From contig CALVOV010000001.1 in assembly GCA_944350385.1 (NCBI GenBank), forward strand, positions 68,631 to 132,630: 64,000 bases of DNA. Reading direction: 5' to 3'. The translations under genes were made by a program, and so were the position numbers. Origin of the DNA: an uncultured Bacilli bacterium. Lineage in GTDB: Bacteria > Bacillota_I > Bacilli_A > RF39 > UBA660. This document shows positions 12,578-28,377 of the stretch, piece by piece. The notes below the pieces were generated by a model, which did no database searches, was not told where the DNA came from, and was given only the letters and a program-made list of their open reading frames with translations. The stretch's first letter is position 1, and every line of letters starts with the position of its first letter.

Positions 12578-12608
12578 TTGACTTGCCAGTCAACTGCTCT
12601 GTTAGTAT
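12578..12608 (+). promoter_or_regulatory. MerR-type promoter/operator
   Basis: -35 TTGACT and -10-like TAGTAT separated by 19 nt. A perfect dyad TTGACTtgccAGTCAA (12578-12593) overlaps the -35 and spacer. Confidence 0.4.
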
Positions 12609-12629
12609 TAAGTCGAGAGGAGGAAATTT

Positions 12630-13062: not shown

Positions 13063-14364
13063 TGCGCATAAAAATTTAATTGTTGAGGGAGATATTGCAT
13101 CAGGAAAAAGTAAGAATGTATTATTTCCTATTGTTGATAATGCTATTGAAAAAAAGAAAGCCTATTTATATTGGATTCCAAAGAAGAATATATAAATAGA
13201 TACTATGATAAGTTAAAATCAAATAATTATAATACTATAATAATAAATTTAAGAGATATGGATAAAAGTGAAGGTTGGAATCCATTAGAGTATCCATATA
13301 ATTTATATAAAAATGGTGATAAAGATAAGGCACAGGAATATCTTGAAAAAATAGGAAAAATTATTTTTCATGAATATTCTAGTCAAGATCCATTTTGGAT
13401 ATTAACAGCATCTGATTTCTTTACAGGAGTAACACTTGCTTTATTTGAAGACGGAAGTGCAAATGAAGTAAATTTAAATAGTGTTAATAATATGTTTAAT
13501 GAAGTTGATAAAAAAATTGGTGCAAGTGATTATATTACTGAATATTTTAAATCAAAAGGTGTTGCTTCAAAACCTTATATTTTTGCTTCAACAACATTTT
13601 TGGCACCAAAGGATACCAAAGAAAGTATTCTATCAGTTGCTAGACAAAAATTAAGATTGTATGTATCAAGAGAAAAATTATCACAACTTATGAATAAAAC
13701 AACATTTAATTTTGAAGATATAGCAAAGAAACCATCTGCAATAATTTTAATTTCACGAGATGAAAACAATTCTTTAAATTCGATATCAGCAATGTTTATC
13801 GAACAATTATATGCAGTATTAGTTGATTTAAAAGTAAAAAATAGATTTAATTTAATTTTGGATAATTTTGATAATATTGAAAAGTGCAATGATTTGGTCG
13901 ATATACTAGGATCTTGTATTTCAAGAAATATTAAAACGTATATTGCAACTCGTTCATTATTAGAACTTACAAATATATATGGAAGCTATATGCCAAAATT
14001 ATGTGATCTATTATCTATTGGAAATGATGATATACGATTAGTTATCAATAATGTTGAACAAAAAATGGATAAAGATTTTAAAACTGTTACTATTCAAAAT
14101 GGAAACATTGAATATCCAAAATTAAGTATTACTGATATTAAATTGTTTGATTTGGAGAAATTTGTTAAAGATATCAAAATACAACAATTAGAAAATATTG
14201 ATTTTGATAGCACTAATCTAGGTGAATTATTTGATGTAGATGCTTTAATAAAAAGCATAGACGAAAAAATAGCTCAAATTGAAATGAAAGAAAAAATAGA
14301 AAATAATAAAGAAAAAGAAGAAATTAAACCGAAAGCAAATAAGTCTAAAATAATAGATATTTAA
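13031..14364 (+). pseudogene. TraG/VirD4-like type IV coupling protein ATPase without TM domain, split by a frameshift in an A7 tract
   Basis: Fragment 1 (13031-13195) carries Walker A EGDIASGKSKNVLFP. Fragment 2 (frame open from 13150) continues SLFILDSKEEY...EGWNPLEYP...DPFWILTASDFF...NLILDNFDNI. The frames meet at A7 13149-13155. Confidence 0.5.
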
Positions 14365-14703
14365 TTATACTGGTTGTATAGCAAATTTTGATAGATTATA
14401 TGATACAGATAAAAATTATATGAAAAACTTATTTTAAAAGCTTGTTTTTTAGAAGTAATCTCAAAACGTAATATTAGATGTAAACATTATAAGAGTATTT
14501 GTAGTATACAATTTAAACTGATGAAATTAATTCAGAAATTTATATATGTATGTCAAATTATTATGATTACAGTGAAACATTATTAAATTTACATATTAAG
14601 AGTCATTAGTTATAAATAATTTATTATAAAAAGATATATCATTTTGATATATTTTTTTTATGAATTGTTATATAATTGATTTATATGATATGGAGGATTG
14701 ATT

Positions 14704-15861
14704 ATGATAAAAGTTGACTATATTTCGACTAGAGATATTAATAGGGTGGCTAAAATACATAGTAATAAGAAATATTATAATTGGATTATGAAAATCGTAG
14801 ATAATGAATATAGATTTTATCCTCCTATTGTTATTGAAGATGATGATGAATATGATGATTTTGATTTTAATACAGAAGAGGATAATTTTGAATTTGATGG
14901 TTTATTTAAGACAGAAGATTTGAAGTTTAACTTACCAATGTTTGGTGAACTTTGGGAAAATACTACTAAATTTTTTAAAGAAGAAAAATTCAAGTTTGTA
15001 AATATATTGGAATCTAATTTAGAAAAGAAAATGCATACTATAAAGAAGGGAATGAATTCATTAGCTAAAGTAGAAAAATATACATGTGGTAATAATTTTT
15101 ATAAATTATATCGTGTTAGACAAAATAATAGTTGTGAAAGTAAAATGAAAAGGTACGGAGGTGCTTTAATGAAATCTTATAAAATTACTACAAATATGTC
15201 TTCTAGGATAAAAAAAGAAAAAGCTAATGAAGATTTAATTAGAGGGATATCTAAAAATTTGACTACTGTTATTAAGAAAAAACAGTATGAGAAAGAATTG
15301 ACTTTGGCGACTTTACAAAAAATATTAAAGAAAGAAAAGTGTCAAAAGAAAGAAAAAGATATTTTTCAAATTATTACTAAATATAATACATCAAAAGTTA
15401 ATAAACCATCTCATGTGATTGAAGAATCTATCACTAAATTAATTAGTGAATGTAATACTTTTAAAAATATTAAATTAGATTATAGTTATAAGACTAGTAA
15501 TTACTCTAGAAAACAAGAATTGGAGTTAATAAGATTAGCGAAGAATAATTGTTATTATAAAAATATATTTTTTGGTGCTGTAAATTTTGATATTGGTTGT
15601 AGTGATTATGAATTAAAACAAAAAGAACAAGACATCATGAATTTAGTTAAAGAGTGTAGGAATATAGATAGTATTCAAAATACTAGATTAAAAAATTATG
15701 AGATTTCAATCATTAATATGGCCAAAGAATTTAAAGATATTAAAGAAATTCCAGATATTAAAGTTAGTAAAAATATGGCCTTTGTTGCTAGAATTAGTAA
15801 ATTTTTGCAGCAAAAGAAAGAAGAAATTGAAATTTTATCTTTTGATGAAGAATATGCATAA
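14704..15861 (+). CDS. Hypothetical Lys-rich protein
   Basis: ATG 14704 is 6 nt after tggagga, with TATAAT at 14671-14676. ~385 aa with an acidic patch (EDDDEYDDFDFNTEEDNFEFD). No motif recognised. Confidence 0.5.
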   Translation: MIKVDYISTRDINRVAKIHSNKKYYNWIMKIVDNEYRFYPPIVIEDDDEYDDFDFNTEEDNFEFDGLFKTEDLKFNLPMFGELWENTTKFFKEEKFKFVNILESNLEKKMHTIKKGMNSLAKVEKYTCGNNFYKLYRVRQNNSCESKMKRYGGALMKSYKITTNMSSRIKKEKANEDLIRGISKNLTTVIKKKQYEKELTLATLQKILKKEKCQKKEKDIFQIITKYNTSKVNKPSHVIEESITKLISECNTFKNIKLDYSYKTSNYSRKQELELIRLAKNNCYYKNIFFGAVNFDIGCSDYELKQKEQDIMNLVKECRNIDSIQNTRLKNYEISIINMAKEFKDIKEIPDIKVSKNMAFVARISKFLQQKKEEIEILSFDEEYA

Positions 15862-15887
15862 AAGTAAGTTTTCCTTACTTTTTTTAT
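15862..15887 (+). terminator. Rho-independent terminator
   Basis: 7-bp stem aagtaag/cttactt plus a T-run, directly after the stop at 15861. Confidence 0.7.
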
Positions 15888-15964
15888 TTATCTATTTTAA
15901 AATTTTTCATTTGTTAGTATAATTATAGTATATGTAAAAGTATATAAAGATAGGAAGTGGAGTA

Positions 15965-18900
15965 ATGAAAAAAAGTGCTTTTCTAATAGCCATGATATTA
16001 TTAGTGGTATTTAGTTTTACTATGTTTTTTATTACACGTTTTGATACATCAACTTTAATTGCCAGAGATGGATTTTTTGTATCTGGGACACAATTAGATG
16101 AAGTTTTACTTAATGAAAATAAACTTGCTAAAAGTGAAAGTGTTAATTTGGAAAAGATTTCTTCTTTAGATACTATGTATGTTAATTTGGATAAGATTTA
16201 CGTTGGTGAAGAAAAAAAGATTGAGGTTAATACTATTTATCCTTTATTTATCAATAATGGTTTAGGTATTGTTAATCTTGACGATAAATCTAAATTAATT
16301 AATAAAAAATTTGAATTATTTGATACTTATGAAAATTTTACCATTACTGGTGGAAAACTTTATAATTTTGGTGACTTTGAACAAGCTGATTATGAAGATT
16401 ATATTTTGTTACAGCTTTCAAATGGTACATATGTAAATTTATTAGATATGAGCCTTGAAACGATGAGTGGAAATTATTCTATTATGACTAATAGTATTAT
16501 CAATTTTCAAGAAAGTTATATTAATTATTACTATTACGATACTGAAGGTAAGTTAGTTTATAAGATTATTGATGGACTTAGTTTAGATAATACTATTTCG
16601 TTTGGTAAAAATAATTATACATATCAAGAATTTTTGGTGGGTATTGAAAAGATGACTTTACCAGAAGATGATACTATTATCGAAGATGAAGATGATTCAA
16701 GTGATGATGATTATATTATTGGAGAAAATGATAACAATAATAATACTAATTCTGGTACTAGCAGTGGTGAAAAAAAATATGTTGCTCCTAAAGTTAGTGT
16801 TACTAATTTTACAGCCAATGTTTATTCAGCTGATGCTACTCTTTCAATATCTGATCCTTCTAGAGTTATAGTTGGAGGAATTAATTTTCAATTTTTTGTT
16901 GATGATAAAGTATTTTTACGTAAAACTTTTTTAAATAGCGGTAATATTGAAGTTGCTGGATTAGTTCCTAATACTACTTTTAAAATTGTTGGTACATATA
17001 AGTATTATAACGAAGAAAGTAAAAAGATGGAGATGACTTTCTTTGAACAAGAGCTTACTACATTAGGTGTAGAAAATCTTGAACCTATCTCTTTAGAATT
17101 TGATAATGGGGTTATTTATCCTAATAAAATAGAATTAAATAATCTTAAAATATCATCTAATTTGCAAAGTGAGACTGTTAAGGGTGTTAATAAAGCAATT
17201 ATAATTATAAATGGTGAGCAGTTTAGTATTGCTACTGGAAAACTTACAGAGATTATTAATGGAAGAAGTATTACTTATACATCTCCAGCTAAAATAGAAT
17301 CTAATACAGTTATTAATTATGAAATTAAATTGTTAGATGCTTATTCTAATGAGATAAAGTTAGTTAATAATTCTGGAGTTACTAGAACAAGTAAAAATGC
17401 TCCAACTACTTCTATTAAAGTTGCTGATAGTGCTGTTAATGAGGTTAAATTAATTGCTAATTTAAAAAATATAGATAATGTTAATATCAATGATTATCGT
17501 TATGTAATTAGTGATGCAAATGGAACTATCTTTGAAGAAAAATCATTAAATTCTAATGAAGATAGTCAAGAAATAATTTTAAAAAATTTAAATCCAAATA
17601 CTACTTATAGTGTTGTGGTTTATGGAAATTATGATATTGAAAATGGTCAAGGTACAATGATTAATCAAGTGATGGGTGAAGGAAAGTTTACAACTTCTCC
17701 TTTATCTAGTTTGGGATTTTTTAGAGTTACAGCAACACCATTAGATTTGACAAGTTCTTCTGTAACTATTAGTTCTAGTTTAGATATTAATAATGTTTCA
17801 GCTATCTTATTAGAATTACTTAATAGTTTAACTATTTCTATTACTGATGAACAAGATAACATAGTATTTACACATACTTATAATGGTGATGCTTTGGATT
17901 TAATTCGTTCAGGCGAAGAATTTTCTATTGATTTAGATGGTTTATCATCTGTTACAACTTATAATGTTAATTATAGTGCGACAGTCAAGCAAGGTACTGT
18001 AGTTGAAGCAATTAATGTTTTATGTTCACTTAAATCTTTTAAAACTTATAAATTAGATGCTGAAGTACAAATACAAAAAGAGTTTGTTACTTCCAATATG
18101 ATAGATTTTGATGTTCGTGTTGTTGATTTAGATGGAGCGATTGAAAGTGGACGTGTTTTACTTGAGGTTCGTGATTCCATTGGTACTTTAGTAGCAAAAG
18201 AATACTTAGATATTAATGCAGATTATGTTCAACTTACTTATTCTCAATTGGAGGCAAGCCAAAAATATACTTTTAATTATATAGCTGAGGAATATAATAA
18301 AGGATTTTCTAATGCAACTTATGAGGGTGATTATAAGTTATTATCTAAGGATATAGTAACTGAAGAAGGTATTAGTGGGGAGATAAAACTTATTAATCTA
18401 TTACGTGATATTACAGGTAAGAATTTATTTAATTTGGAAGATTATAATCGTATTCGTAAAGAAGGAAATACTGGTTATAAGGAATATGATGTTCAAAATA
18501 ACACTGTAATGTTTGGAGCTAAAAATGGTTATGTTACATATTCTTATTTTCTACCTGAAGCTTATCATAAAGTAGTAAATTTATCTTTTAAGGCTAGATA
18601 TAATGAAGATACCCAAAATACTGCTCCTGTTTATATTTCTTTAGGTTATGGAAATAATAGAAATTATGCGGTAACTAATTTAACTGATCAATATAAAGAA
18701 TATAGTTTTACTTTTTATTCTACTTCTAATTATATTGGATTTAATATATATGAAACTGCTAATGCTAATAAAAAGACAACCGTTGATTTTAAAGATATAC
18801 AAATTTTAAGTCTTGATGAAGAAGCATTTTTAAATACTGAAAATTCTATGTCAATTCATCCATCACGTTATATTTTCTCAGATACTATTATGATAGATGG

Positions 18901-21900
18901 TAATAGTTCTATGCCAAATTGGAGTTCTGGTGGAACAATGATAGGTAATGCTGGAGCTGGACATGCTAGGATTACTAGACTTAGTGATGGAAAAGTTTAC
19001 GAGTTTAATTATACTGGTTCTCCACAAACTTTTGATGTTCCAACTTCTGATATATATAGAATAGAATGTTGGGGAGCCGCTGGTGGAGATAACTCTAATC
19101 CAGTTGGTTCTAATAGAACTTCTCCATCCACGGCTGGACGCGGTGCTTATACTTCTGGCGATATTACCTTGGATTCTAGTGCTACATTATATGTTTATGT
19201 TGGTGGTGCTGGAGTTTACAGTACTACTTCTAAAGCTGGTGGTTGGAATGGAGGAGGAAAAAATGGTGGTGGTTCTGCTGGATCTGGATCTGGTGGAGGT
19301 GCTACTGATGTTAGATTAATAAATGGAACTTGGAATAATTTAGAGTCATTACAATCAAGAATTATGGTTGCTGCTGGTGGTGGTGGTTCAGATAATGCTG
19401 GAGGAACATTGAACGGCAGTGATGATGGACGTGGAGGTTCAGGAGGAACTTTATTTGGACTTGGTGGTTACATAAATGGAGTTATTCAACCTGGTAGTGT
19501 AGCTACACAAGTTACTGGAAACGCTTTTGGTATTGGTGCTAATCCTACTACAGTTACAGATACTGGTGGTGGAGGTGGCGGTTATTATGGTGGCCTTGCT
19601 ACTAACAGTGGAAATGGTGGAGCAGCAGGAGGATCTTCATATATATCTGGTCATCAAGGTTGTATTTCTTATAACAATGCAGCTAATTTCTTAGCTTTTG
19701 AAAAATATCAAGAAAATTCTCAATATCAGGGAACTTTTGATATTACTATACAAGATTTGCGAGATGAAATTACTACTAACGACTATTATGTTAGAGTTTA
19801 TAGAAAAGGTGAATATCTTAATGAATATCATTATGATTTACCTGATAGTAATTTGATTGAAAATGATAGGCAAACATATGGATTTGATAAAAATGTAGAA
19901 TATACACTTACTTTATCTGTAAAACAAAGGGATAGGTATTATGATATTGATTCTGTAGAGTTTACTACAGAAACTGAAATACGTTCTATTACTACTGTAT
20001 CTGAGTTTTTTGCAATGCATCCAGATGGTAAGTACATTGTTTTAAATGATTTAGATTTTACTGGTTCAACTACTATTTATAGTTCATGGTTTTATGGAGA
20101 AATTGATTTTCAAGGATACCATATGACACGTAATGCTCAAGGTGCTGCTTTGAGGTTATTTGAACAGTTTAGATCTAGTGCGGTTATAAAAAACCTTGTT
20201 ATTGATTTCTATTTTGATAATTCATCAAGTAGAGAGTGGTATTATGGTTTAATTACATATAATTATGGTACTGTTGATAATGTATATGCAATAGTACATG
20301 AAGCTACCCTTGTACCTAATTATGTTCTTACTCTGTTTTGTTATGCAAATTATGGTACGATTAGTAATTTTGTAATTAATTCAAAAGTTAGTGTTTCAGC
20401 ATTAGCAGCTAGTGGATTAGCTACCTGGTCAAATCAGGGAGTATTACGTAATGGTTATGCTTATGGTGAAAATATTTATGCATATCATCAAAATGTTGAT
20501 AGACGTAGTAGAAAAGATGTAGCGGTTTTTGCTGGTGAAACTAATAATAATTCTCGTATAGAAAATGTATTTTCATTAATTAGTGTTGAAAAGTCAAATA
20601 GTTATGGAACTGGTGATAAAGAGTTATCTGTTGGTAATATGGTTGGTTATCATGGTTCTGGTTATATGGGTAATTCTTATTCTGTAGAACTTACTGATAA
20701 AACAAATACTAACATTTTAACTCAAGATCCTAATATTGGTAAGGTTTCATCTATTAGACAAAATAATCTTTATTATGTATCTGATAAAACTTATGGAGGA
20801 ATATATTCAAATAAAATTTCTAAATTGGCTTTGTATGATAAAAATTTCCAAAATCAAACATTGAATACTTATAATGGTTTTGATGTTGATCCAGTTGATT
20901 TAGGATATTTTCCACAATTAAAGTTAAATGATTGTATGCCTAAACAAGATTGGATTGAGTTGCCAACTGTTACAGAGGATGATTTGATTGATATTACTTC
21001 CATTGAAGTAGTGGAAAACAACGGAGATAATGCAGTTATTAAATTGTATATTAATAATCCATCTAATGAACAAATAACCCGCATGACTATTACAGATATT
21101 AATAAAATAGATATAATAAATCAGGTCAATTCTTTTGGTAAAACGACTCTTACTGTTAAATTGAGTCAACCACGTTCATATAAATCAAGATATTATATTG
21201 ATACTTTATGGATTAAACCAGCTTATGGACCTGAATATACTAGAGTTTATGAGAAAAATGAAAGATCTATTAATATTGATTTATATTATCCAATTTATAA
21301 TTTAAATGATTGGAAAATAATGGTTTCTAATCCTTCACAAAATTATAGTTTAATGGCTGACTTAGATTTTAAAAATGTGGCTTCTATCAGTAGTTATGTT
21401 GTTAATAGTACATTTAGTGCTAAATTGGATGGAAGAGGTCATACTATTAGTAATATTACGATTAGTAGTAATAATGGATTGTTTAATAGTGTTACTGGTA
21501 CAATTAAAAATTTATTTGTTAAAAATTATAAAAAAACAAGTAATACATCTTATGGTGGTTTTATCTATCAAGCAACTACTAATTCTGTTATAGATAATGT
21601 TCACATAGATGGTTGTCAAGTTTATGGACGTGATAGGATTGGTGGATTAGTAGGTTATTCTAATTCCATGACGATTAGAAACTCATCAGTCACGGGATTT
21701 AAACCTTCTGTTCCAGATGATCAAGAAAATTCATATATTGGTGGTTTAGTTGGGTATGCTAACTTGACATTTATTGAAAATTCTTACACTCAAGATCTTA
21801 ATATTAATATTGATAATGCTATGTCAACATTAGGTGTTGGAGGATTAGCAGGACGTATGGTTCAAGGCACTGTTTCTTATTCATACTCATCAGGAACTAT

Positions 21901-24900
21901 TAGGACTAATACTATTAATGTTGGTGGTTTAGTAGGTTGGAGTTCAGCTACTATTAGTAATGTTTGGAGTTATGTAAATATATCTACAGAACTTGATTAT
22001 GTTGGTGGTATAGTTGGTAAGTCTGATAACTCTAATGTAAATAATACCTTGGTTGCTGGTGCTATATATTCAAGATATGTATCTAATCAAGGAAATAATA
22101 TTCATAGAACCACAGGTAATGCACTTTCTGTTATTCAATCTAATTATGCTTGGGATAAGCAAAAATTTTATGGTTATGTTACTGGTGAAGCGTCAGCTGA
22201 AATTTTAGTAACAACAGAGAGCTTACAGGAACTTACTACTTACCAAGATTTAATTGGATTTGGAGAAATATTTGATTATTCTCAGATAGGAGATTCTATC
22301 TTACCAAAGATTAAAAATCCTGATACTGGAGAATTGTTACCAAATCAAAAAGATATAAATTTGGTAGGTGAAGAGTTTGATGTAAAAACTATAGAAATTG
22401 AGCCTACAGCAACTAATGCTACTATTCATATGATTATTGAAAATCCAAAACAATATGAAATAACTGGTATTGAATTTGATTATTTGCAAAAAATAACTGA
22501 GAGATATGTTAATAATGCTACTGATGGCACTACGGATGTTTATTTATCTGTTAGTCCGACTATGTATTTTGATAGTTACGCTTTTAATAAAGTAAATTAT
22601 ATAGATAGTAATGGAGAAGCTGCATCTTATGATAAAGTTGTCAGGATAGAATTACAATTCTTTAAAATATTGTCCTCTTTTGATGGTTGGAATCAAATAA
22701 GTACAACTTTTGCTGAAAATTATCGTATTACTGGTGATATTGATTTATCACAATTAGCTTCACCTAAATCCGGTGTTATTTTTGGTAGATTAGAGGGATT
22801 AGTTAATGATTCTGGTGTTAATTATAAAATAATGAATTATACAAAAACTGGAATTAAGGCATCTAAAACTAATTTAATTCGTAAAATTACAACTACTCTT
22901 AAAAATATAACATTTGAAAATATTGATTTAGAAACAACTGGCACTTCAACTTATTCTTATATGAATGTTATTTATTTAAATTATTCTGATATTGAAAACG
23001 TTCAGTTTAATTCAATTACAATCAATGCTCCTAAATCTAGTTATGTTGCACCTATAGGTGTTCATAGAGGACAAAATATTGATAATGTTCAAATAAATAA
23101 TAATAACATTACAGGAACAAGTTATGTTGCTGGATTGTTAGCATCTTCGTATAATACAAGTAGTACGGACGTTGTAGCAAGAGATTGTACTATTTATGGT
23201 AGCAATCAATACGTTGCTGGTATTGTAGCTTATAAGGATTATTTGAATGGATATAATACATTTAGATATTCAGGTTACAACATGAATGTTACTGGTAAAA
23301 CTGATGTTGGTGGGCTATTTGGTTATGCTGGTGCTCAAGATGCTAGAATATATGATTCAACAATCACTGGTATAAGTAATGGTAATTATGTTGGTGGTTT
23401 AGGTGGACGTAGTAGTTATGAACGTAGTGATATTCAATTGGTTAGTGGTTGTACAATAGTAGCTTCTTCTAATTATGTTGGTGGCTTATATGGTTGGGCA
23501 AGACATATGTATGATTGTACGGTAGAGAATACTACTATTACACAAACTAATTCTGCAAGAACTTATGTAGGTGGAGCTTTTGGATATCAAGATGGCTATA
23601 CGCATTCTAATATTGGTATTGTTAATGTTGATATAACTAATGCTGGAAATTACACGGGTGGAATTACAGGAAGATTAAATAATACTCCTGGTTTACATTA
23701 TGTATTTACAAATAATGTTACTATTAAAGGTAAAGATTATGTAGGAGGAGTTGCTGGAAGTAGTAATACAGGTCGTTTATATTATAATGTTACTAATGTT
23801 AATATAAGTGCAACAGGAAATTATGTTGGTGGAGTTTTTGGATATATTTCTTCAATACATGCAGTTGATAGTGCTTATTCAGCTGTTGTTTATGAATGTT
23901 TGGTAGCTAATTCGGTTGTTACTGGTAATAATTACGTAGGTGGTTTTGTTGGTAATACTAATGGAAGTCAACTTACTCCTGCCAAGTTCTACAATATTTT
24001 GTTAGTTGTTGATGTTAATTCAACTGCTTCTTCTAACGTTTATGCTGGAGCTATTAATGGAAGAGATAATAAAGATTATTCTACTATTCTAATGCAGAAG
24101 ATTAGGTTATATGAAAATAATAGATTGAATAATTCCACATTGAAGGCTTTACGCTTACCTATGATTCCTTCATCTAACTTGGTAACTACGACTAATTTAA
24201 AAACTCAAAGTTACTATACTGGATTTGGTTTTTCTACTGCAAGATGGGATTATGCAAATATATCTACAAGTTTTCCAAGAGTAAAGACTGCTTCTAACGG
24301 AAAGATTAGAGGAGAGCAAGAGCTATTGCCTGTTCCTACTTCAAATATTGTCTTTGCGAGAGCTATGCGTGAAATAGCACCTGTTGGTCATGAACTTCCT
24401 AAGATGTCAGCATATGCTAGTGGTATTAATTCTATTAACTTAGAGTTTAGTGATACAGATGAGTATTCATTCTTTGAAGTATATGACGGTGAGACTAAAG
24501 TATTTGAACAAAATGTTGATGAAAGAGCATTTACTATTAATTATGATTATCAGTCTAATATCAAGGTAATCTTAAGTGATGGAAGAAATTCTAAAGTTTA
24601 TGAATATAAGGCAAGTGATTTTAGAGTTCCTGCAAGTACTTATAATAAGAAATATGCTTATATTTATAAAGGCGATTTAAAAGGAAATGTTGATCCTCCT
24701 AATACCAAAGGAAAATTTATTCATATTTATAGAGATCTGGCTTTGACAGATGAGATGGAAGTAGTAAATATTATTACTGGTGAGATATCAGAAGGTAGCT
24801 ACATGTTCACAATTTCTTTAGCTGATAAAACTGTTCCATTGTTTGAATTTGATTATAAAGATACTCCTATTGAAACTTATTATAATTATTCTATTGTTAG

Positions 24901-25747
24901 AAAAGATGGTAATGATATTCTTTATAATAATCAAATCTTAGTTAAAAATGGTAATATTGAAATTGTTGATTCAATGTTAGAATCTTATCATAATATGGTT
25001 ATTTTAGATAATTATTCTAATAAAGATTATATTTCGGTTTTAGGAACTGATGGTTCATTATATGATTTGAAATCTCCGATTTCAATTCCTAATAATTTTT
25101 CAAATAAGGCAATTCGTTTTATATCTAATAATATATATAGTGATAATAGTGCCGTAATACTTATTTATAAAACTGGTAAGGTGGTAGTATTCGATTATCG
25201 AACTGGCAAAGAGATAGTACAAGAAAAAGCTACTGAAGATATTTCGATAGTAGATTATTTTAAAGAAAATTTCTCTTCTTCTACTCCTTTAATTGGCAGT
25301 AATATTACTTCTAATTATCAAGAAGCTTTGGACTTAAAGGAACTTCTTTTAGATACTCCTATTCAAGCTACTAGTAATGGTTCATTCACAATGGCCAATG
25401 AAGATAATATTGATTCTGACGATATTCTTTCTTCTATAAAAAAATCTAAAAATTATGTAACTTATTACAATTCGGTCAGAGATGATTATGATGTTTTAGA
25501 TATTTCTAGTCTTATAAGTGATACTGATAATACAATAAAAGATTCTGAAAATATAGTAACAGAGAACAATAAAATTTATACTTCAAATAATTTGGTACAA
25601 TTTTACATGAAAAAATCAGCAATTAAAGAAGTGTTAGAAAATATCAATGGTTTATATATTTTTGGAGCTTTATTCATTGGATTATTAGGAGCTTTGTGGT
25701 TAGGTTCTAGATATACTAAAAAGTTAAAACCGATAGAGGAGGAATAA
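15965..25747 (+). CDS. Giant (3,260 aa) multi-domain cell-surface protein
   Basis: Uninterrupted 9.8-kb ORF. N-terminal signal/anchor helix, FN3/Ig-like repeats, jelly-roll-like segment, glycine-rich domain, three GLUG-repeat beta-helix modules, and a C-terminal TM helix with a basic tail. No LPXTG. Confidence 0.9.
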   Translation: MKKSAFLIAMILLVVFSFTMFFITRFDTSTLIARDGFFVSGTQLDEVLLNENKLAKSESVNLEKISSLDTMYVNLDKIYVGEEKKIEVNTIYPLFINNGLGIVNLDDKSKLINKKFELFDTYENFTITGGKLYNFGDFEQADYEDYILLQLSNGTYVNLLDMSLETMSGNYSIMTNSIINFQESYINYYYYDTEGKLVYKIIDGLSLDNTISFGKNNYTYQEFLVGIEKMTLPEDDTIIEDEDDSSDDDYIIGENDNNNNTNSGTSSGEKKYVAPKVSVTNFTANVYSADATLSISDPSRVIVGGINFQFFVDDKVFLRKTFLNSGNIEVAGLVPNTTFKIVGTYKYYNEESKKMEMTFFEQELTTLGVENLEPISLEFDNGVIYPNKIELNNLKISSNLQSETVKGVNKAIIIINGEQFSIATGKLTEIINGRSITYTSPAKIESNTVINYEIKLLDAYSNEIKLVNNSGVTRTSKNAPTTSIKVADSAVNEVKLIANLKNIDNVNINDYRYVISDANGTIFEEKSLNSNEDSQEIILKNLNPNTTYSVVVYGNYDIENGQGTMINQVMGEGKFTTSPLSSLGFFRVTATPLDLTSSSVTISSSLDINNVSAILLELLNSLTISITDEQDNIVFTHTYNGDALDLIRSGEEFSIDLDGLSSVTTYNVNYSATVKQGTVVEAINVLCSLKSFKTYKLDAEVQIQKEFVTSNMIDFDVRVVDLDGAIESGRVLLEVRDSIGTLVAKEYLDINADYVQLTYSQLEASQKYTFNYIAEEYNKGFSNATYEGDYKLLSKDIVTEEGISGEIKLINLLRDITGKNLFNLEDYNRIRKEGNTGYKEYDVQNNTVMFGAKNGYVTYSYFLPEAYHKVVNLSFKARYNEDTQNTAPVYISLGYGNNRNYAVTNLTDQYKEYSFTFYSTSNYIGFNIYETANANKKTTVDFKDIQILSLDEEAFLNTENSMSIHPSRYIFSDTIMIDGNSSMPNWSSGGTMIGNAGAGHARITRLSDGKVYEFNYTGSPQTFDVPTSDIYRIECWGAAGGDNSNPVGSNRTSPSTAGRGAYTSGDITLDSSATLYVYVGGAGVYSTTSKAGGWNGGGKNGGGSAGSGSGGGATDVRLINGTWNNLESLQSRIMVAAGGGGSDNAGGTLNGSDDGRGGSGGTLFGLGGYINGVIQPGSVATQVTGNAFGIGANPTTVTDTGGGGGGYYGGLATNSGNGGAAGGSSYISGHQGCISYNNAANFLAFEKYQENSQYQGTFDITIQDLRDEITTNDYYVRVYRKGEYLNEYHYDLPDSNLIENDRQTYGFDKNVEYTLTLSVKQRDRYYDIDSVEFTTETEIRSITTVSEFFAMHPDGKYIVLNDLDFTGSTTIYSSWFYGEIDFQGYHMTRNAQGAALRLFEQFRSSAVIKNLVIDFYFDNSSSREWYYGLITYNYGTVDNVYAIVHEATLVPNYVLTLFCYANYGTISNFVINSKVSVSALAASGLATWSNQGVLRNGYAYGENIYAYHQNVDRRSRKDVAVFAGETNNNSRIENVFSLISVEKSNSYGTGDKELSVGNMVGYHGSGYMGNSYSVELTDKTNTNILTQDPNIGKVSSIRQNNLYYVSDKTYGGIYSNKISKLALYDKNFQNQTLNTYNGFDVDPVDLGYFPQLKLNDCMPKQDWIELPTVTEDDLIDITSIEVVENNGDNAVIKLYINNPSNEQITRMTITDINKIDIINQVNSFGKTTLTVKLSQPRSYKSRYYIDTLWIKPAYGPEYTRVYEKNERSINIDLYYPIYNLNDWKIMVSNPSQNYSLMADLDFKNVASISSYVVNSTFSAKLDGRGHTISNITISSNNGLFNSVTGTIKNLFVKNYKKTSNTSYGGFIYQATTNSVIDNVHIDGCQVYGRDRIGGLVGYSNSMTIRNSSVTGFKPSVPDDQENSYIGGLVGYANLTFIENSYTQDLNINIDNAMSTLGVGGLAGRMVQGTVSYSYSSGTIRTNTINVGGLVGWSSATISNVWSYVNISTELDYVGGIVGKSDNSNVNNTLVAGAIYSRYVSNQGNNIHRTTGNALSVIQSNYAWDKQKFYGYVTGEASAEILVTTESLQELTTYQDLIGFGEIFDYSQIGDSILPKIKNPDTGELLPNQKDINLVGEEFDVKTIEIEPTATNATIHMIIENPKQYEITGIEFDYLQKITERYVNNATDGTTDVYLSVSPTMYFDSYAFNKVNYIDSNGEAASYDKVVRIELQFFKILSSFDGWNQISTTFAENYRITGDIDLSQLASPKSGVIFGRLEGLVNDSGVNYKIMNYTKTGIKASKTNLIRKITTTLKNITFENIDLETTGTSTYSYMNVIYLNYSDIENVQFNSITINAPKSSYVAPIGVHRGQNIDNVQINNNNITGTSYVAGLLASSYNTSSTDVVARDCTIYGSNQYVAGIVAYKDYLNGYNTFRYSGYNMNVTGKTDVGGLFGYAGAQDARIYDSTITGISNGNYVGGLGGRSSYERSDIQLVSGCTIVASSNYVGGLYGWARHMYDCTVENTTITQTNSARTYVGGAFGYQDGYTHSNIGIVNVDITNAGNYTGGITGRLNNTPGLHYVFTNNVTIKGKDYVGGVAGSSNTGRLYYNVTNVNISATGNYVGGVFGYISSIHAVDSAYSAVVYECLVANSVVTGNNYVGGFVGNTNGSQLTPAKFYNILLVVDVNSTASSNVYAGAINGRDNKDYSTILMQKIRLYENNRLNNSTLKALRLPMIPSSNLVTTTNLKTQSYYTGFGFSTARWDYANISTSFPRVKTASNGKIRGEQELLPVPTSNIVFARAMREIAPVGHELPKMSAYASGINSINLEFSDTDEYSFFEVYDGETKVFEQNVDERAFTINYDYQSNIKVILSDGRNSKVYEYKASDFRVPASTYNKKYAYIYKGDLKGNVDPPNTKGKFIHIYRDLALTDEMEVVNIITGEISEGSYMFTISLADKTVPLFEFDYKDTPIETYYNYSIVRKDGNDILYNNQILVKNGNIEIVDSMLESYHNMVILDNYSNKDYISVLGTDGSLYDLKSPISIPNNFSNKAIRFISNNIYSDNSAVILIYKTGKVVVFDYRTGKEIVQEKATEDISIVDYFKENFSSSTPLIGSNITSNYQEALDLKELLLDTPIQATSNGSFTMANEDNIDSDDILSSIKKSKNYVTYYNSVRDDYDVLDISSLISDTDNTIKDSENIVTENNKIYTSNNLVQFYMKKSAIKEVLENINGLYIFGALFIGLLGALWLGSRYTKKLKPIEEE
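18900..19680 (+). other. Glycine-rich domain (Pfam Gly_rich / ALK-LTK GR-like) within the giant protein
   Basis: NYTGSPQTFDVPTSDIYRIECWGAAGGDN...LYVYVGGAGV...GGWNGGGKNGGGSAGSGSGGGATDVRL...RIMVAAGGGGSDNAGG...GGGGGGYYGG. Confidence 0.6.
19987..24300 (+). other. Three GLUG-motif beta-helix modules (about 19987-20930, 21290-22350, 22660-24300)
   Basis: Each module opens with a ...Y.(L/I).(N/A/G)D(L/I)D(F/L)... lead-in and closes with an FP.(L/V)K-like motif. Modules 2 and 3 carry 5 and 10 or more (Y)VGG(L/I/V/F)xG(Y/W/K/R) repeats. Confidence 0.6.
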
Positions 25748-25748
25748 A

Positions 25749-26303
25749 ATGGTTAAATTAAAATTAAGTAAAAGAGGAATTATATTTGTTGCAATTGCTA
25801 TAATAGTAGTGATATTACTAATTGTACTGGGACTTAGGGTACTTAGTAATGCTTCTGTTAAAACTCCTGTTGAATTAACTGAATCTTTTATGAAAAAATA
25901 TCAAATAGCAGATAGTGAAATAATGAATAAGATTGAATATCCTTTTGATGATCAGTTAACTGATGAACAATTGAAAAGATATAAGGATTTAATTGAGACT
26001 CAGTATTTAGCTCTTGATTATCAAATAGTTGAAGAAAATATTGGTGAACTTGATGCTATTATAAAAGTGGAGTTTAGTGTTTTTGATTATGCTTCAAGTT
26101 ATGATAAGGCTACTAATTATTTAAATGTATATGAAAAAGATATGAGCTCAATAAAACAAGTTGACTATAAATTGAAAGAGATGGAAAATACTCAGGAAAA
26201 AATCACTTATGCTATTACATTTAATTATTATAAGTTAGATGGTAAATGGATTATGTTAGAAGTCTCAGATACTGATTTGAGTAAATTATCTGGAACATAT
26301 TAA
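25749..26303 (+). CDS. Small N-terminally anchored protein, translationally coupled to the giant gene
   Basis: The ATG is 1 nt after the giant gene stop. Its gaggagga SD lies inside the last codons of the giant gene. TM helix IIFVAIAIIVVILLIVLGL followed by a ~150-aa alpha+beta domain. Confidence 0.6.
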   Translation: MVKLKLSKRGIIFVAIAIIVVILLIVLGLRVLSNASVKTPVELTESFMKKYQIADSEIMNKIEYPFDDQLTDEQLKRYKDLIETQYLALDYQIVEENIGELDAIIKVEFSVFDYASSYDKATNYLNVYEKDMSSIKQVDYKLKEMENTQEKITYAITFNYYKLDGKWIMLEVSDTDLSKLSGTY

Positions 26304-26304
26304 A

Positions 26305-26335
26305 AAAGATGGATTTAATAATCCATCTTTTTATA
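26305..26335 (+). terminator. Rho-independent terminator
   Basis: 11-bp stem aaagatggatt/aatccatcttt, 4-nt loop, T-run. Confidence 0.8.
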
Positions 26336-26389
26336 TTATTTTTATTATTAAGTATGATATAATAGAATTAAGATGGGATGTGATAATTC

Positions 26390-27430
26390 GTGGAGGTTTT
26401 GGACAATAAATGTCCAGGATGTGGTGCTAAAATAAATTTTAATCCAGTTAATCAAACGTGGGATTGTGATTATTGTGGAAGTAAGTTTACTTTAGAAGAA
26501 ATGCAGAAATATTCAAATGCTAGTAGTGTAGAAGTTAATACTGAACAAATTCAAAATAAAACATTAGATAAATTTGTTACTTATCATTGTAGTAATTGTG
26601 GAGCTGAAATAATGGCTGATGAAACTACTGTTGCAACTTTTTGTGTGTATTGTGGTAGTACAGCAATTTTAAAAGAGAAAATTGAAAATGGGAGAGCTCC
26701 TGACTTAATTATTCCTTTTAAAAATACTAAAGAAGATGCGTCTAAAGCTTTTTCTAATGTTACAAGGTATAAACCACTTATGCCAAAAGAGTTTAGACAA
26801 TTAAAGAATATTGAAAAAATTTCTGGTATATATATTCCTTTTTGGGCATATGATATTGTTTGTGATGGAAATGTTACTTTTTCTTGTACTGATACATCGC
26901 ATTGGTCAGATTCAAAATATAGATATACTAAAGTCGATAGATATAGTTCTACAATTGAAGGACATTTTGATTATGAAAAAGTATTAGCTGATGCTTCAAG
27001 TAGATTCAAAGATGAATTGATGGATTCAATAGAACCTTTTGATTATCAAGAATTAAAGGAGTATAATCATGCTTATTTAGCTGGATTTTTTGCTGAAAAA
27101 TATGATGTTAGCGAAGATAATGCTTATATAAGAGCTAAAGAACGTACTATGAATACCTGTGTTGAATTAGCACAAGGTGAAACCCATCATCAAAGTAGTA
27201 TTATTAATAACAATCAATTCAATTTAGTAAAATCTTCTACAAATTATATTATGTTACCCGTTTGGATGGTTAATATTAAATATAAGGATAAATTATATAC
27301 TTTTGCAATGAATGGACAATCTGGAAAAATGGTTGGTGATATTCCCATAGGCATTAAAGAAACTATAATTTGGGGATTAATTATTTTTATTGTTACTTTC
27401 TTAATTTGTTTATTAGTTGTGTTATTATAG
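26390..27430 (+). CDS. YdjG-like double zinc-ribbon protein with C-terminal TM anchor
   Basis: CPGCG...CDYCGS and CSNCG...CVYCGS ribbons and a C-terminal helix IIWGLIIFIVTFLICLLVVLL. TGaTATAAT at 26355-26363. Sits upstream of TPM and SPFH genes, as in B. subtilis ydjGHI. Confidence 0.55.
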   Translation: MEVLDNKCPGCGAKINFNPVNQTWDCDYCGSKFTLEEMQKYSNASSVEVNTEQIQNKTLDKFVTYHCSNCGAEIMADETTVATFCVYCGSTAILKEKIENGRAPDLIIPFKNTKEDASKAFSNVTRYKPLMPKEFRQLKNIEKISGIYIPFWAYDIVCDGNVTFSCTDTSHWSDSKYRYTKVDRYSSTIEGHFDYEKVLADASSRFKDELMDSIEPFDYQELKEYNHAYLAGFFAEKYDVSEDNAYIRAKERTMNTCVELAQGETHHQSSIINNNQFNLVKSSTNYIMLPVWMVNIKYKDKLYTFAMNGQSGKMVGDIPIGIKETIIWGLIIFIVTFLICLLVVLL

Positions 27431-27438
27431 AGGTATTT

Positions 27439-28356
27439 ATGAAAAAGAAATTTATATTATTTTTAGTAGTTTTAAATTTATTTTTATATTTACCAGTAAA
27501 TGCTAGTACTAATACATATGAAAGAACAAACGATAATTTATTAATACCTGATGATATTGAAGTAACAGAAAGTAATAGAAGTAATATCTTATTAACACCG
27601 GCAGTAAATGCTAAAGAAAAGATATATGATTTTGCTGATTTATTTTCTGATGCTGAAGAGTTAGAATTATATGCAAAAGTTTCAAATTATATTAATCAGA
27701 CAAGTTTAGATTTGGCAATAGTTACTATAAATTATAATAATAAGCATAATATTCAAGTATATGCTGATGATTTTTATGATTATAATGATTTTGGTATTGG
27801 TAATGGTAATTCTGGGTCTTTATTCTTGATTGATATGGATACTAAACAAATTTATATGACTACAACTGGTAATGCTATTAGGACATATACTGATCAACGT
27901 TATAATATTATTTTAGGAAATGTATTTACCTATGTTGCTAATGGACAATATTATAATGGAATAAATTCTTTGGTTGATTTAATGTCATCGTATGCGGAGA
28001 TAAATCCTTTAGAAGATGGTAATTATGTAATTGAAAATGGTAAAGTTGTTAAAGATAATAATGATATATTAGTCTGTTTGGGTATTGCATTAATAGTTAC
28101 TATCATTGCATTACTTATTATGGCTAGAATGAATAAAATGGTATTTAAGGCTAGTTCATCAAGAAATTACTTAAAGCATGAAACTATGAATATAAAAAAG
28201 ATAAACGAAGTTTTTCTTGGATCTAGTGTTACTAAGGTTAAGATAGCAGAATCTTCTACTGGAAGTGGCTCTAGAAGAGTTGGCTCTAGTAGATCTAGCT
28301 CAATCCATCGTGGTAGTAGTGGTAGATTTCATGGTGGCGGTGGAAGACGTTTTTAA
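27439..28356 (+). CDS. TPM-domain membrane protein (YdjH-like)
   Basis: Signal peptide, TPM signature region IYDFADLFSDAEELELYAKVSNYINQTSLDLAIVTI, TM helix, and a Ser/Gly/Arg tail ending HGGGGRRF. The track start 27370 was trimmed to ATG 27439. Confidence 0.75.
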   Translation: MKKKFILFLVVLNLFLYLPVNASTNTYERTNDNLLIPDDIEVTESNRSNILLTPAVNAKEKIYDFADLFSDAEELELYAKVSNYINQTSLDLAIVTINYNNKHNIQVYADDFYDYNDFGIGNGNSGSLFLIDMDTKQIYMTTTGNAIRTYTDQRYNIILGNVFTYVANGQYYNGINSLVDLMSSYAEINPLEDGNYVIENGKVVKDNNDILVCLGIALIVTIIALLIMARMNKMVFKASSSRNYLKHETMNIKKINEVFLGSSVTKVKIAESSTGSGSRRVGSSRSSSIHRGSSGRFHGGGGRRF

Positions 28357-28377
28357 AAAATAGGAAAGAGGTTTATT

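Follow-up and report, generated by a model that had tools for sequence, protein, structure and literature searches.

A giant surface protein of uncultured gut Bacilli with a transmembrane helix at each end, and the linkage of its homologues to an F1Fo-like ATPase cluster

F1-like ATPases coupled to anchored surface proteins have precedent (PMC3369863, PMC11864180, PMC12994834). Such ATPases, powering surface systems and not ion transport, are so far known only from mycoplasmas, where they are the proposed drive of gliding and are needed for antibody cleavage. In the gliding machinery of Mycoplasma mobile (Gli123, Gli349, Gli521 and the Type 2 'G1' ATPase), anchored giants of more than 3,000 residues are tied to F1-derived alpha, beta and gamma subunits; Gli349 and Gli521 each have transmembrane (TM) segments at one end only. 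The surface-protein genes of this species can sit apart from the ATPase cluster (PMC11864180). The mycoplasma MIB-MIP system consists of TM-anchored surface proteins of roughly 80-100 kDa, which bind and cleave IgG, encoded beside an atypical F-type cluster (Type 3, 'F1-like X0'). The Type 3 ATPase is required for MIB-MIP function, and the association is sometimes broken by relocation, with co-occurrence persisting (PMC12994834). The MIB-MIP cluster has seven genes, including those for 12-TM and 2-TM X0 proteins, lacks a c subunit and has an alpha-like subunit without an N-terminal helix. Across Types 2 and 3, the X0 sector comprises a 12-TM protein and a 2-3-TM protein, with neither a c subunit nor a peripheral stalk.

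Large surface proteins of Gram-positive bacteria provide a second point of reference. YueB / PIP / EsaA of the Firmicutes is a long extracytoplasmic fibre held by TM helices at both ends, with several of these at the C-terminus; it is about 900-1,100 residues long and presumably unrelated in sequence to the protein described below. Staphylococcus epidermidis Embp is a giant of the same type as Staphylococcus aureus Ebh, which carries a YSIRK signal peptide that is cleaved off, together with helical repeats of the FIVAR/GA and DUF1542 kinds, and for which we know of no linkage to an ATPase. Ebh, with a signal sequence and a TM domain, is the sole large surface protein without LPXTG (PMC4856396).

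The window analysed here is a stretch of 64,000 nucleotides from an uncultured member of the Bacilli. In line with an earlier note made from its letters, one unbroken ORF of about 9.8 kb, starting with the ATG at 15965 and encoding 3,260 residues, takes up 15.3% of the window. This ORF (hereafter the giant) and its surrounding features are as follows.

15862..15887, + strand: AT-rich terminator-like hairpin and T-run after the upstream gene (direct sequence reading)
15896..15923, + strand: promoter-like TTTAAA-16-TATAAT (promoter scan, 10/12 matches)
15952..15962, + strand: ribosome-binding site AGGAAGTGGAG, preceding the ATG of the giant
15965..25747, + strand: giant gene, 3,260 aa, stop codon included (ORF; 68 homologues from search)
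25749..26303, + strand: partner gene, 184 aa, single-pass membrane protein with an ectodomain of ~150 aa (ORF, homologues)
26303..26332, + strand: intrinsic terminator closing the two-gene unit (13-bp stem, T-run)

The TATAAT noted earlier at 15918-15923 is present in the sequence, and promoter-like matches in this AT-rich window occur at chance density (95 found versus 92.7 expected). The upstream terminator holds as a hairpin followed by a T-run, but is not called by the terminator scan because it has too few G-C pairs; the terminator past the next gene is confirmed, at the coordinates given by the scan. The view that the giant forms its own unit is true locally, except that the unit also holds the 184-aa partner gene, which starts 1 nt past the stop codon of the giant and has its Shine-Dalgarno site inside the last codons of the giant (GAGGAGGAA). 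The two genes are predicted to be co-transcribed and translationally coupled. The partner directly follows the giant in all clade A (the clade of the window) and clade B loci where its position can be checked by sequence; a 176-aa gene after the giant in locus L020 has no detectable homology to it. NCBIfam holds no family for either protein, and an Rfam scan of 11500-27000 gave no match. A phage or plasmid origin was rejected, as the region 12000-30000 has no megablast match and the flanks consist of chromosomal housekeeping genes.

The ORF is confirmed as real, mis-assembly being excluded as far as sequence data allow. The earlier note had considered that it might be interrupted or mis-assembled at internal repeats; it is unbroken, and a repeat scan found no long direct or tandem DNA repeats within it (none longer than 43 nt, and those found below 80% identity). 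About 30 orthologues align over 99-100% of its length at 43-72% identity. Given the lack of internal DNA repeats and the colinear homologues, an assembly chimera was rejected. A near-identical gene occurs in an independent ENA assembly, where it is listed as 100% identical, with residue 8 being I in the window and T in that copy.

The protein has hydrophobic helices at aa 5-24 and aa 3230-3247, which bears out the proposed TM helix at both ends. Exactly two hydrophobic helices, one per terminus, are found in the full-length members of a set of 68 homologues (24-100% identity), and the same pattern recurs in 65/68 additional representatives with a length of 2,700 aa or more, so that two terminal helices mark the family. 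The C-terminal helix occurs in every one of the 68 homologues. Positive charges lie at both ends of the giant, on the predicted cytoplasmic side, and distant homologues have 15-50 basic residues, predicted to be cytoplasmic, ahead of the N-terminal helix. Because of these long basic tails, the N-terminal helix probably serves as a signal anchor that is not cleaved, and the giant would therefore be tethered at both ends, a property extending to the whole family. As Gli349 and Gli521 are generally described, the helix at each end sets the giant apart from both.

The reported absence of a recognisable wall-anchoring signal also stands. The one match of a regular-expression search for LPXTG on the giant is NPDTG at aa 2118, over 1,100 aa away from the C-terminus, and no Pfam match to SLH, LysM, CWB2 or choline-binding domains was obtained with the whole giant (E<=0.01) or with ten 400-aa segments (E<=1). 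Of the features of a sortase-anchored C-terminus, the hydrophobic segment and basic tail are present and LPXTG is missing. Retention by a C-terminal membrane anchor had been considered unusual for a Gram-positive giant; S. aureus Ebh, likewise a giant with no LPXTG and a C-terminal TM anchor, is a precedent (PMC4856396). Unlike Ebh and Embp, the giant has no Pfam matches to FIVAR/GA or DUF1542, and its structural models are beta-rich. A wall-less, mollicute-like host as the cause of the missing wall anchors was rejected, since the window encodes a DacA-type PBP (E 1e-60), a PASTA Ser/Thr kinase (E 1e-178) and CotE (E 1e-51).

Between the terminal helices lies an array of domains, in keeping with the earlier description of a modular surface giant; the protein is modular and very probably surface-exposed. 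Its regions are as follows.

15977..16036, + strand: N-terminal TM helix, aa 5-24 (hydropathy 2.5; conserved in full-length members)
16037..16669, + strand: all-beta N-terminal domain, family-defining, aa 25-235 (AlphaFold pLDDT about 80-95)
16670..16777, + strand: acidic/Asn-rich disordered linker, aa 236-271 (sequence; model pLDDT below 50)
16778..18394, + strand: about five FN3/Ig-like domains, aa 272-810 (first by model, rest by sequence pattern)
18395..18829, + strand: jelly-roll-like domain, aa 811-955, approximate boundaries (sequence reading only)
18830..19696, + strand: glycine-rich domain cassette of the ALK/LTK GRD type, aa 956-1244 (Pfam PF12810)
19697..19972, + strand: Ig-like spacer, aa 1245-1336 (sequence pattern; conserved across the family)
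19973..20959, + strand: beta-helix-like module 1, aa 1337-1665 (sequence pattern only)
20960..21286, + strand: Ig-like spacer, aa 1666-1774 (sequence pattern)
21287..22204, + strand: beta-helix module 2 with GLUG motifs, aa 1775-2080 (Pfam Glug, Peptidase_M26_N-like)
22361..22657, + strand: Ig-like spacer, aa 2133-2231 (sequence pattern)
22658..24139, + strand: beta-helix-like module 3 with repeated YVGGxxG turns, aa 2232-2725 (motifs at aa 2448-2658)
24389..25228, + strand: beta-sandwich and beta-propeller-like region, aa 2809-3088 (AlphaFold pLDDT about 90-97)
25229..25504, + strand: helical and alpha-beta membrane-proximal stalk, aa 3089-3180 (AlphaFold model)
25652..25705, + strand: C-terminal TM helix, aa 3230-3247 (hydropathy; conserved in homologues)
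25706..25744, + strand: basic cytoplasmic tail SRYTKKLKPIEEE, whose last codons form the Shine-Dalgarno site of the next gene

The domain order given in the earlier note holds in outline, although a GLUG match is found in module 2 only and not in modules 1 and 3. The per-module Pfam scan that it had suggested matched GRD and GLUG above their gathering scores and fn3 weakly. For the N-terminal domain, a Foldseek search with the model of aa 25-372 found no PDB fold match for aa 25-235 beyond the adjacent FN3, which was part of the search model and whose matches dominated the result list; an exhaustive search detected the domain in 264 clusters, and in every target it occupies the extreme N-terminus. 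The first repeat is an FN3 domain (same model, AlphaFold; Foldseek target-normalised TM 0.57-0.66), and the weak Pfam fn3 match of the segment scan falls at about aa 505-557. The jelly-roll-like domain has no Pfam match and is partly kept in distant clades. Structure prediction used an alignment of 23 rows.

The glycine-rich domain is a clade-specific cassette. ALK_LTK_GRD (PF12810) matches aa 1030-1255 with E 3.6e-43 and 148.7 bits, against a gathering cut-off of 24.5 (E 9e-49 on the scan segment). The GRD is present in only two family clades and is absent or replaced in distant ones; depending on the family member, this position holds a GRD, a LamG-type domain or no domain. The domain model is that of ALK/LTK, here within a bacterial surface giant, and the cytokine-binding role of the vertebrate GRD cannot be transferred to it.

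Module 1 has no Pfam match, to GLUG or otherwise, in the scan segment aa 1281-1680, and module 3 has no Pfam GLUG match, its Gly columns being nearly invariant in the family alignment. In module 2, Glug (PF07581) matches with E 8.8e-11 and 4.9e-9 (41.9 and 36.4 bits; cut-off 20.5) in the 400-aa segments aa 1601-2000 and 1921-2320; with the whole giant at E<=0.01 no GLUG match was reported. Motifs of the form [VIL]GGxxG lie at aa 1892-2013 of this module, and a Peptidase_M26_N region in segment aa 1601-2000 (E 3.5e-6, 26.9 bits) falls below the 27.7 cut-off. GLUG motifs and this match to the M26 N-terminal region are what module 2 has in common with streptococcal IgA1 proteases of the M26 type. 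Unlike these, the giant has no catalytic M26 domain and no LPXTG; motif and Pfam searches of the giant found no HEXXH and no protease domain, which also distinguishes it from MIB and MIP. The C-terminal model resembles the propellers of WD40 proteins, BamB, YncE and Sevenless/ROS1 (Foldseek E 2e-6 to 1e-3).

The 68 homologues, more than 60 of them full-length, come from independent metagenomes, and the family falls into at least 200 clusters at 50% identity, its members being 2,800-6,200 aa long. Its hosts are uncultured, low-GC gut Bacilli with peptidoglycan and sporulation genes; reduced-genome orders of Bacilli have been placed between Mycoplasmatales and Erysipelotrichales (PMC10868615). 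Source databases name the homologues only as hypothetical or glycine-rich-domain proteins. The family is a large, conserved and wholly unannotated component of common gut bacteria. That the domain combination is not a described family agrees with the lack of any NCBIfam or PDB sequence match, the whole giant retrieving from the PDB only spurious scFv-linker matches (E>0.07); a full-length match to a characterised adhesin family was found neither in these sources nor among the homologue names. The term adhesin used earlier is itself an assumption. Length and domain order are colinear down to 24% identity, with identity even along the chain, and this conservation is not the pattern of a repeat-variable adhesin.

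In all seven lineages examined outside the clade of the window (L003/L013, L005, L006, L008/L009, L018, L019, L020), the giant directly adjoins a conserved F1Fo-like cluster of about 12 genes as the last large gene, although the giants of these lineages are only 24-45% identical to that of the window. Besides F1Fo-like alpha, beta, gamma, epsilon and c subunits, the cluster has genes for several single-pass membrane proteins and for a second giant of about 1,750-1,950 aa with an N-terminal anchor only. The usual order is second giant, a 457-557-aa bitopic protein, c-like, b-like, alpha-like, gamma-like, beta-like and short epsilon-like subunits, a 5-TM protein, a 233-421-aa bitopic protein (g10) and then usually the giant. 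The g10 gene is immediately upstream of the giant in 6/7 lineages, L006 having another gene order; one cluster-carrying lineage is represented on more than 100 contigs. Profile comparison gave no significant match that would indicate an N-terminal domain common to the giant, the 457-557-aa protein, g10, the partner and the second giant. No description of such a cluster outside mycoplasmas was found in the literature. A conjugative-element surface protein was rejected, there being no conserved linkage to conjugation genes; the upstream VirD4-like gene, which is broken into two frames, reaches 114 bits where the cut-off is 250, and the orthologous locus L010 does not have it.

In clade B the order is g10-GIANT-partner-thiI-SASP-ackA, and in clade A (loci L014, L016 and L017) the cluster ends g10-thiI-SASP-ackA. 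By this gene order, the giant and its partner have left their place between g10 and thiI in the clade of the window. A MAG of this clade still has the cluster at its ancestral site, as does a contig (L017) from the sample of the window; the locus tags of P0229 (IJ193_02870) and of the giant P0012 (IJ193_04840) belong to a single MAG. The L017 sample, ERZ17292904, is also that of a near-identical copy of the window's locus, and L017 and the window may belong to one genome, as judged only from the shared sample and similar GC contents (27.7% and 26.7%).

The ATPase of the cluster is of an unusual kind. Its beta-like and alpha-like subunits have their best matches among genuine bacterial F1 subunits (E 1e-115 and 4e-97; beta versus G1-ATPase beta, E 1e-92), and the Walker A sequence GGAGVGKT and GVGERSREG are intact. 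The c-like subunit (81 aa, PF00137) has T, T, T, T, N, A or T in the canonical carboxylate column in seven clusters. In L016 and L017 an Asp occurs at position -1 from the canonical site, so that ion binding is less firmly excluded in L017. The epsilon-like subunit has only 80-96 aa, and the cluster has no Pfam matches to ATP-synt_A, ATP-synt_B or OSCP (no a, b or delta). The cluster departs from a canonical F1Fo ATP synthase in the Glu/Asp of the c subunit, in having no recognisable a, b or delta subunit and in its shortened epsilon. The b-like protein consists of a TM helix and a coiled coil. An Arg that is conserved in one TM helix of the 5-TM protein could represent residual a-subunit function, and the cell could have no F-type ATPase other than this odd one.

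From this gene neighbourhood, and by analogy with the mycoplasma Type 2 and Type 3 systems, we lean slightly towards regarding the giant as the surface arm of an F1Fo-derived ATPase machine. It would be the main extracellular arm of an ATP-hydrolysing envelope machine in which rotation or torque, instead of pumping ions, acts on the membrane-embedded helices of associated proteins, since a c-ring of this kind would not bind the coupling ion. The giant would reach through the wall and present its cassette (here a GRD), GLUG beta-helices and propeller as binding modules, and the ATPase would power a conformational cycle (catch, pull, release) or the deployment of the giant. Since the giant is not beside the ATPase genes in the window, their joint action need not persist in this organism.

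The likeness to M. mobile lies in giants of comparable size tied to F1-derived subunits, and its split loci for surface protein and ATPase resemble the clade of the window. The likeness to MIB-MIP lies in TM-anchored surface proteins beside an atypical F-type cluster. The Type 2/3 arrangement, with alpha-, beta-, gamma- and epsilon-like genes beside TM-anchored surface genes, occurs in the homologous loci and in the clade of the window, but not in the window. The Type 2/3 X0 sector is not matched here: in contrast to both mycoplasma systems, the cluster has a c-like subunit, as well as a b-like stalk, and no 12-TM protein. The host, unlike M. mobile, appears to have peptidoglycan and sporulation genes. 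With a thick wall, a gliding leg of the mycoplasma kind is mechanically less obvious.

The same neighbourhood might be historical or regulatory only, the giant being an autonomous adhesin or coat protein that is Sec-exported, retained by its helices and bound to host glycans, mucus or other cells through GRD, GLUG and propeller. We consider this rather unlikely. In the window's clade, giant and partner do form a separate two-gene unit with its own promoter-like site and terminator, far from the ATPase genes; bacterial adhesins often have FN3/Ig arrays, GLUG beta-helices and propellers, tandem paralogues occur (L012, L008) as in adhesin families, and Ebh shows that a C-terminal TM helix can hold a Gram-positive giant. 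However, adjacency to the cluster is kept across seven lineages despite the divergence of the giants, clade A genomes retain the cluster, and its further conserved bitopic ectoproteins have no role in a normal ATP synthase. The colinear length, domain order and even identity are likewise atypical of adhesins that vary in repeat number.

It is improbable that the cluster is instead an export or assembly motor for the giants, comparable to the F1-like FliI/FliJ of type III export, with the giant as cargo and later a passive adhesin or spacer. The cluster linkage fits this equally, proteins of 1,700-3,600 aa crossing membrane and wall might need help, and relatives of rotary ATPases do drive protein export (PMC11864180). 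Both giants nevertheless have ordinary N-terminal Sec-type hydrophobic segments, no recognisable pore-forming component is present, and the gamma-, epsilon-, c- and b-like proteins make up a whole rotor-stator, which known export ATPases have not kept. A structural protein of the envelope or spore, serving as a fixed-length spacer or scaffold across the wall or a spore layer without ligand binding, would agree with the strictly conserved length and colinearity, with CotE in the window (E 1e-51) and with SpoIVA, SpoVIF and SASP near the cluster, yet is very improbable, given the absence of similarity to known coat or cortex proteins and a swappable cassette (GRD, LamG-type or none) that suggests adaptive ligand recognition.

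The reading of the giant as the surface arm of an ATPase machine bears on two questions, the origin of the F1-like ATPases of surface systems and the route by which their torque reaches surface proteins. The cluster retains a c-ring and a stalk-like protein, and would accordingly be a less-derived version whose genes reveal the membrane coupling partners. A broader and more tentative proposal, possible though doubtful at present, is that walled, spore-forming gut Bacilli have an unrecognised envelope machine in which an ion-blind, F1Fo-derived rotary ATPase turns ATP hydrolysis into mechanical work on giants tethered at two ends, and which is either an evolutionary stage on the way to the Type 2 and Type 3 motors or a parallel to them of independent origin. 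If this is true, the principle would not be limited to wall-less cells, and motors once thought to be inventions of the mycoplasmas would have a counterpart in gut Bacilli.

The window has a G+C content of 26-27%, a strongly positive GC skew and almost all of its genes on the + strand. A single ORF, opening with ATG, encodes a 3,260-aa protein (the giant), and the features of this gene and its surroundings are listed below.

Features of the giant gene and its transcription unit
15862-15887, +, AT-rich hairpin and T-run upstream of the giant gene, seen in the sequence and uncalled by the terminator scan
15918-15923, +, TATAAT upstream of the giant gene
15952-15962, +, ribosome-binding site of the giant gene, upstream of the ATG
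15965-25747, +, giant gene
25749-26303, +, partner gene (184-aa single-pass membrane protein), starting 1 base past the giant's stop codon
26303-26332, +, strong terminator 3' of the partner gene, from the terminator scan

The number of promoter-like matches does not exceed that seen in shuffled sequence. The partner's Shine-Dalgarno sequence, GAGGAGG, is formed by the last Glu codons of the giant and, since the partner starts at the giant's end and is followed by a strong terminator, the transcription unit comprises the giant and this coupled partner. The possibility that the ORF is an artefact is ruled out: there are no tandem or long direct DNA repeats within it (the longest families of repeats span 25-43 nt, at 61-81% identity), a near-identical copy with a difference at residue 8 is present in an independent ENA assembly, and alignments covering 99-100% of the length are obtained with about 30 orthologues, which have 3,196-3,307 aa and are 43-72% identical.

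Domain anatomy of the giant; boundaries are approximate for domains without a Pfam match or model
aa 5-24, TM helix (hydropathy)
aa 25-235, N-terminal domain, all beta (AlphaFold pLDDT about 80-95; no match to a fold in the PDB)
aa 236-271, acidic/Asn linker (disordered in the AlphaFold model)
aa 272-810, about five FN3/Ig-like domains (the first is FN3 by model and Foldseek; Pfam weak)
aa 811-955, jelly-roll-like domain (from sequence reading alone)
aa 956-1244, ALK/LTK-type glycine-rich domain, GRD (PF12810, E 3.6e-43)
aa 1245-1336, Ig-like spacer (sequence pattern)
aa 1337-1665, beta-helix-like module 1 (sequence pattern; no GLUG match)
aa 1775-2080, beta-helix module 2 (GLUG, E 9e-11 and 5e-9; M26-N-like, E 3.5e-6)
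aa 2232-2725, beta-helix-like module 3 (repeated YVGGxxG turns)
aa 2809-3088, beta-sandwich and beta-propeller-like region (model pLDDT above 90; Foldseek matches to WD40, BamB, YncE and Sevenless propellers, E 2e-6 to 1e-3)
aa 3089-3180, helical or alpha-beta stalk (model)
aa 3230-3247, C-terminal TM helix (hydropathy)
aa 3248-3260, basic tail (sequence)

The beta-helix modules are set apart by Ig-like spacers, and the whole giant contains no LPXTG near its end, no HEXXH and no wall-binding repeat. Pfam, hydropathy and the homologues confirm the modular protein that the earlier note had described, with a TM helix at each end and no wall-anchoring signal. Its view that the domain combination belongs to no described family also stands, as the giant is matched neither by NCBIfam nor by any PDB sequence. 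Calling the predicted C-terminal membrane anchor unusual was too strong, because Staphylococcus aureus Ebh is held in the same way (PMC4856396).

The predicted two-ended topology extends across the family. Among 68 homologues (24-100% identity, 2,774-3,673 aa), the full-length members have exactly one hydrophobic helix per terminus and a basic tail after the last helix; the first helix is missing in P0013, which is N-terminally truncated, and in P0023, which has a short start. This helix is best read as an uncleaved anchor, because 15-50 mostly basic residues precede it in distant members; a plausible signal-peptidase site occurs in a few lineages (P0067, P0068). With aa 1-272 as the query, an exhaustive HMMER search returned 264 clusters at 50% identity (219 at E<=1e-10), with the domain at the extreme N-terminus of the target in every match. 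A further 68 representatives, each 2,700 aa or longer (up to 6,237 aa), were examined, and 65 of them have a helix at each end.

Compared with the window protein, members of all clades show an even level of identity over their length, except in the GRD (aa about 956-1244). This domain is missing in distant clades, with a clean deletion in P0033-37, and its position holds other inserts in P0040 and P0045, the latter a LamG-type Pfam domain. Judged from these alignments, the family therefore combines a fixed scaffold with a single swappable cassette. Tandem paralogous giants occur on one contig (L012 1851-21560), where two GRD-bearing copies of 3,258 and 3,264 aa are followed by a single partner-sized gene (181 aa). 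On another (L008 8001-24745), a second family member lies 1.8 kb downstream of the first giant.

The earlier note's picture of a gene standing alone holds in the window's own clade (clade A) only. In 7/7 other lineages looked up, on contigs with family members, the giant adjoins the same F1Fo-like ATPase gene cluster, whose order was read from the fullest examples, L013 and L020.

Gene order of the F1Fo-like cluster
Gene 1, second giant, about 1,720-1,960 aa, N-terminal helix only
Gene 2, bitopic protein, 457-557 aa, with FN3-like parts
Gene 3, c-like subunit, 81 aa (PF00137)
Gene 4, b-like protein, 229-254 aa, N-terminal TM helix and coiled coil
Gene 5, alpha-like subunit
Gene 6, gamma-like subunit
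Gene 7, beta-like subunit
Gene 8, epsilon-like subunit, 80-96 aa
Gene 9, 5-TM protein, 170-204 aa
Gene 10, bitopic protein (g10), 231-421 aa
Gene 11, giant
Gene 12, partner, 183 aa (L013), or a non-homologous small bitopic protein, 176 aa (L020)

In 6/7 lineages, g10 is the gene immediately upstream of the giant; L006 and L018 have a rotated order (giant, second giant, 457-557-aa-type protein, c-like subunit). The alpha- and beta-like subunits, which best match genuine bacterial F1, match the Mycoplasma mobile G1-ATPase more weakly (E 2e-79 and 1e-92), and keep Walker A, the catalytic GERxxE region and the alpha arginine. Conservation of the c-like subunit is high, but its ion-binding Glu/Asp column is occupied by Thr, Asn or Ala in 7/7 clusters examined; in two clade A copies, the residue just before this column is Asp. 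The epsilon-like subunit is without C-terminal helices, and no a, b or delta subunit is recognisable in the cluster by Pfam. In the 5-TM protein (L013 8733-9272 and orthologues, three copies aligned), an Arg is conserved inside a hydrophobic segment and recalls the essential Arg of the F-type a subunit.

In clade A and its sister, clade B, the alpha-like subunit reaches 809-966 aa with a C-terminal extension of 400-500 aa that is acidic, repetitive and rich in Glu, Val and Pro (L013 3925-6354; L014 4169-7069; L017 2489-5152); in other lineages it has 441-486 aa. Matches to genuine F1 alpha stop near residue 430 of roughly 500-residue chains. In L006, a V-type ATPase operon (1-6078) lies just upstream of the giant, with the F1Fo-like cluster beginning downstream; a separate rotary ATPase is therefore available for ion pumping in at least that lineage.

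Apart from the giant and partner, none of the cluster genes lies within the 64-kb window. A search with a single g10 sequence picked up orthologues, 47-53% identical, on clade A contigs (L014, L016, L017) that carry the whole cluster, ending g10-thiI-SASP-ackA, whereas the sister clade order is g10-giant-partner-thiI-SASP-ackA. The comparison indicates that giant and partner were excised from the cluster end, the cluster itself being kept in the genome; their present position is between serS and a Zn-ribbon/TPM/SPFH gene set. One MAG's locus tags are on both a g10 protein (IJ193_02870) and a giant (IJ193_04840). Sample ERZ17292904 is the source of both L017 and a near-identical copy of the window's locus, both contigs being present in NCBI as well. 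G+C is similar for L017 and the window (27.7% and 26.7%), and the two are likely from the same genome.

The genes downstream of the partner (26390-29487) encode a 346-aa Zn-ribbon protein, a TPM-domain protein and an SPFH/Band-7 protein with a terminal Zn-ribbon; they are conserved in clade A, with the first two missing in L002. Directly upstream of the giant, 14698-15861 encodes a 387-aa protein that has no family match and shows no evident hydrophobic segment. The N-terminal part of this protein (KVDYISTxDINKVAKIHSNKKY...EYRFYPP) corresponds to a 208-221-aa protein at the same position in other clade A loci, the window's version being about 170 aa longer by extra internal sequence. Further upstream (11809-14364), a 1.2-kb stretch after serS without an ORF of at least 100 aa is followed by a VirD4-like (CD1115-family) ATPase gene, below its cut-off (114 versus 250 bits) and in two frames (Walker-A ORF 13031-13195, main ORF 13171-14364). 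The appearance is that of a mobile-element insertion in decay, or else of a sequencing frameshift; the orthologous locus L010 has an unrelated 664-aa gene at the position of the VirD4-like gene. Elsewhere, in the 617-aa protein encoded by 6576-8429, a long region of acidic near-tandem repeats (DEDFLDNEKESEDIEKSEEEKD...) precedes a hydrophobic segment, which is followed by a GDSL lipase/acylhydrolase domain. The 854-aa protein of 39251-41815, unusually large for a pilin-like protein, combines a prepilin-type N-terminal methylation motif with four Listeria-Bacteroides repeats.

All homologues are from MAGs of uncultured gut, rumen and faecal bacteria, which carry the label 'Bacilli bacterium' or 'Firmicutes bacterium' apart from single MAGs labelled 'Clostridia bacterium' and 'Ignavibacteriales bacterium'. 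In the window, genes for a DacA-type PBP (D-Ala-D-Ala carboxypeptidase, 18-1166), CotE (34791-35324, E 1e-51) and a PASTA-domain Ser/Thr kinase (49494-51311) indicate, as gene content, peptidoglycan and sporulation in a low-GC member of the Bacilli, and rule out a wall-less host as the explanation for the missing wall anchors. SASP, SpoIVA and SpoVIF genes occur in related loci. The host genome is probably small; small-genome Bacilli orders, in which wall and spore phenotypes are mixed, are placed between Mycoplasmatales and Erysipelotrichales (PMC10868615).

Literature searches found no published description of such a cluster. The Type 3 'F1-like X0' ATPase co-occurs with MIB-MIP and is needed for its function (PMC12994834). 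Compared by ATPase gene cluster and host, the mycoplasma systems differ in that here a c-like ring and stalk-like protein are kept, there is no 12-TM protein and the host is a walled spore-former.

All conclusions are based on sequence and gene order. The conserved linkage to a cluster with a carboxylate-less c subunit tips the balance slightly towards a functional link of the giant with the ATPase; that the giant is exposed at the surface is far more probable, and any specific mechanism (catch-pull cycle, deployment, motility) far less so. It is doubtful that the giant is an autonomous adhesin with a purely historical ATPase neighbourhood; its separate operon in this window speaks for this reading, and linkage retained at 24-45% identity and the other ectoprotein genes embedded in the cluster speak against it. 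That the cluster serves as a dedicated motor for export or assembly, and the giant is its cargo, seems improbable, and a structural wall or spore spacer very improbable. If the functional link holds, the giant would be the extracellular arm of a machine with an F1Fo-derived motor, in which ATP hydrolysis would act on membrane-anchored surface proteins rather than drive ion transport.
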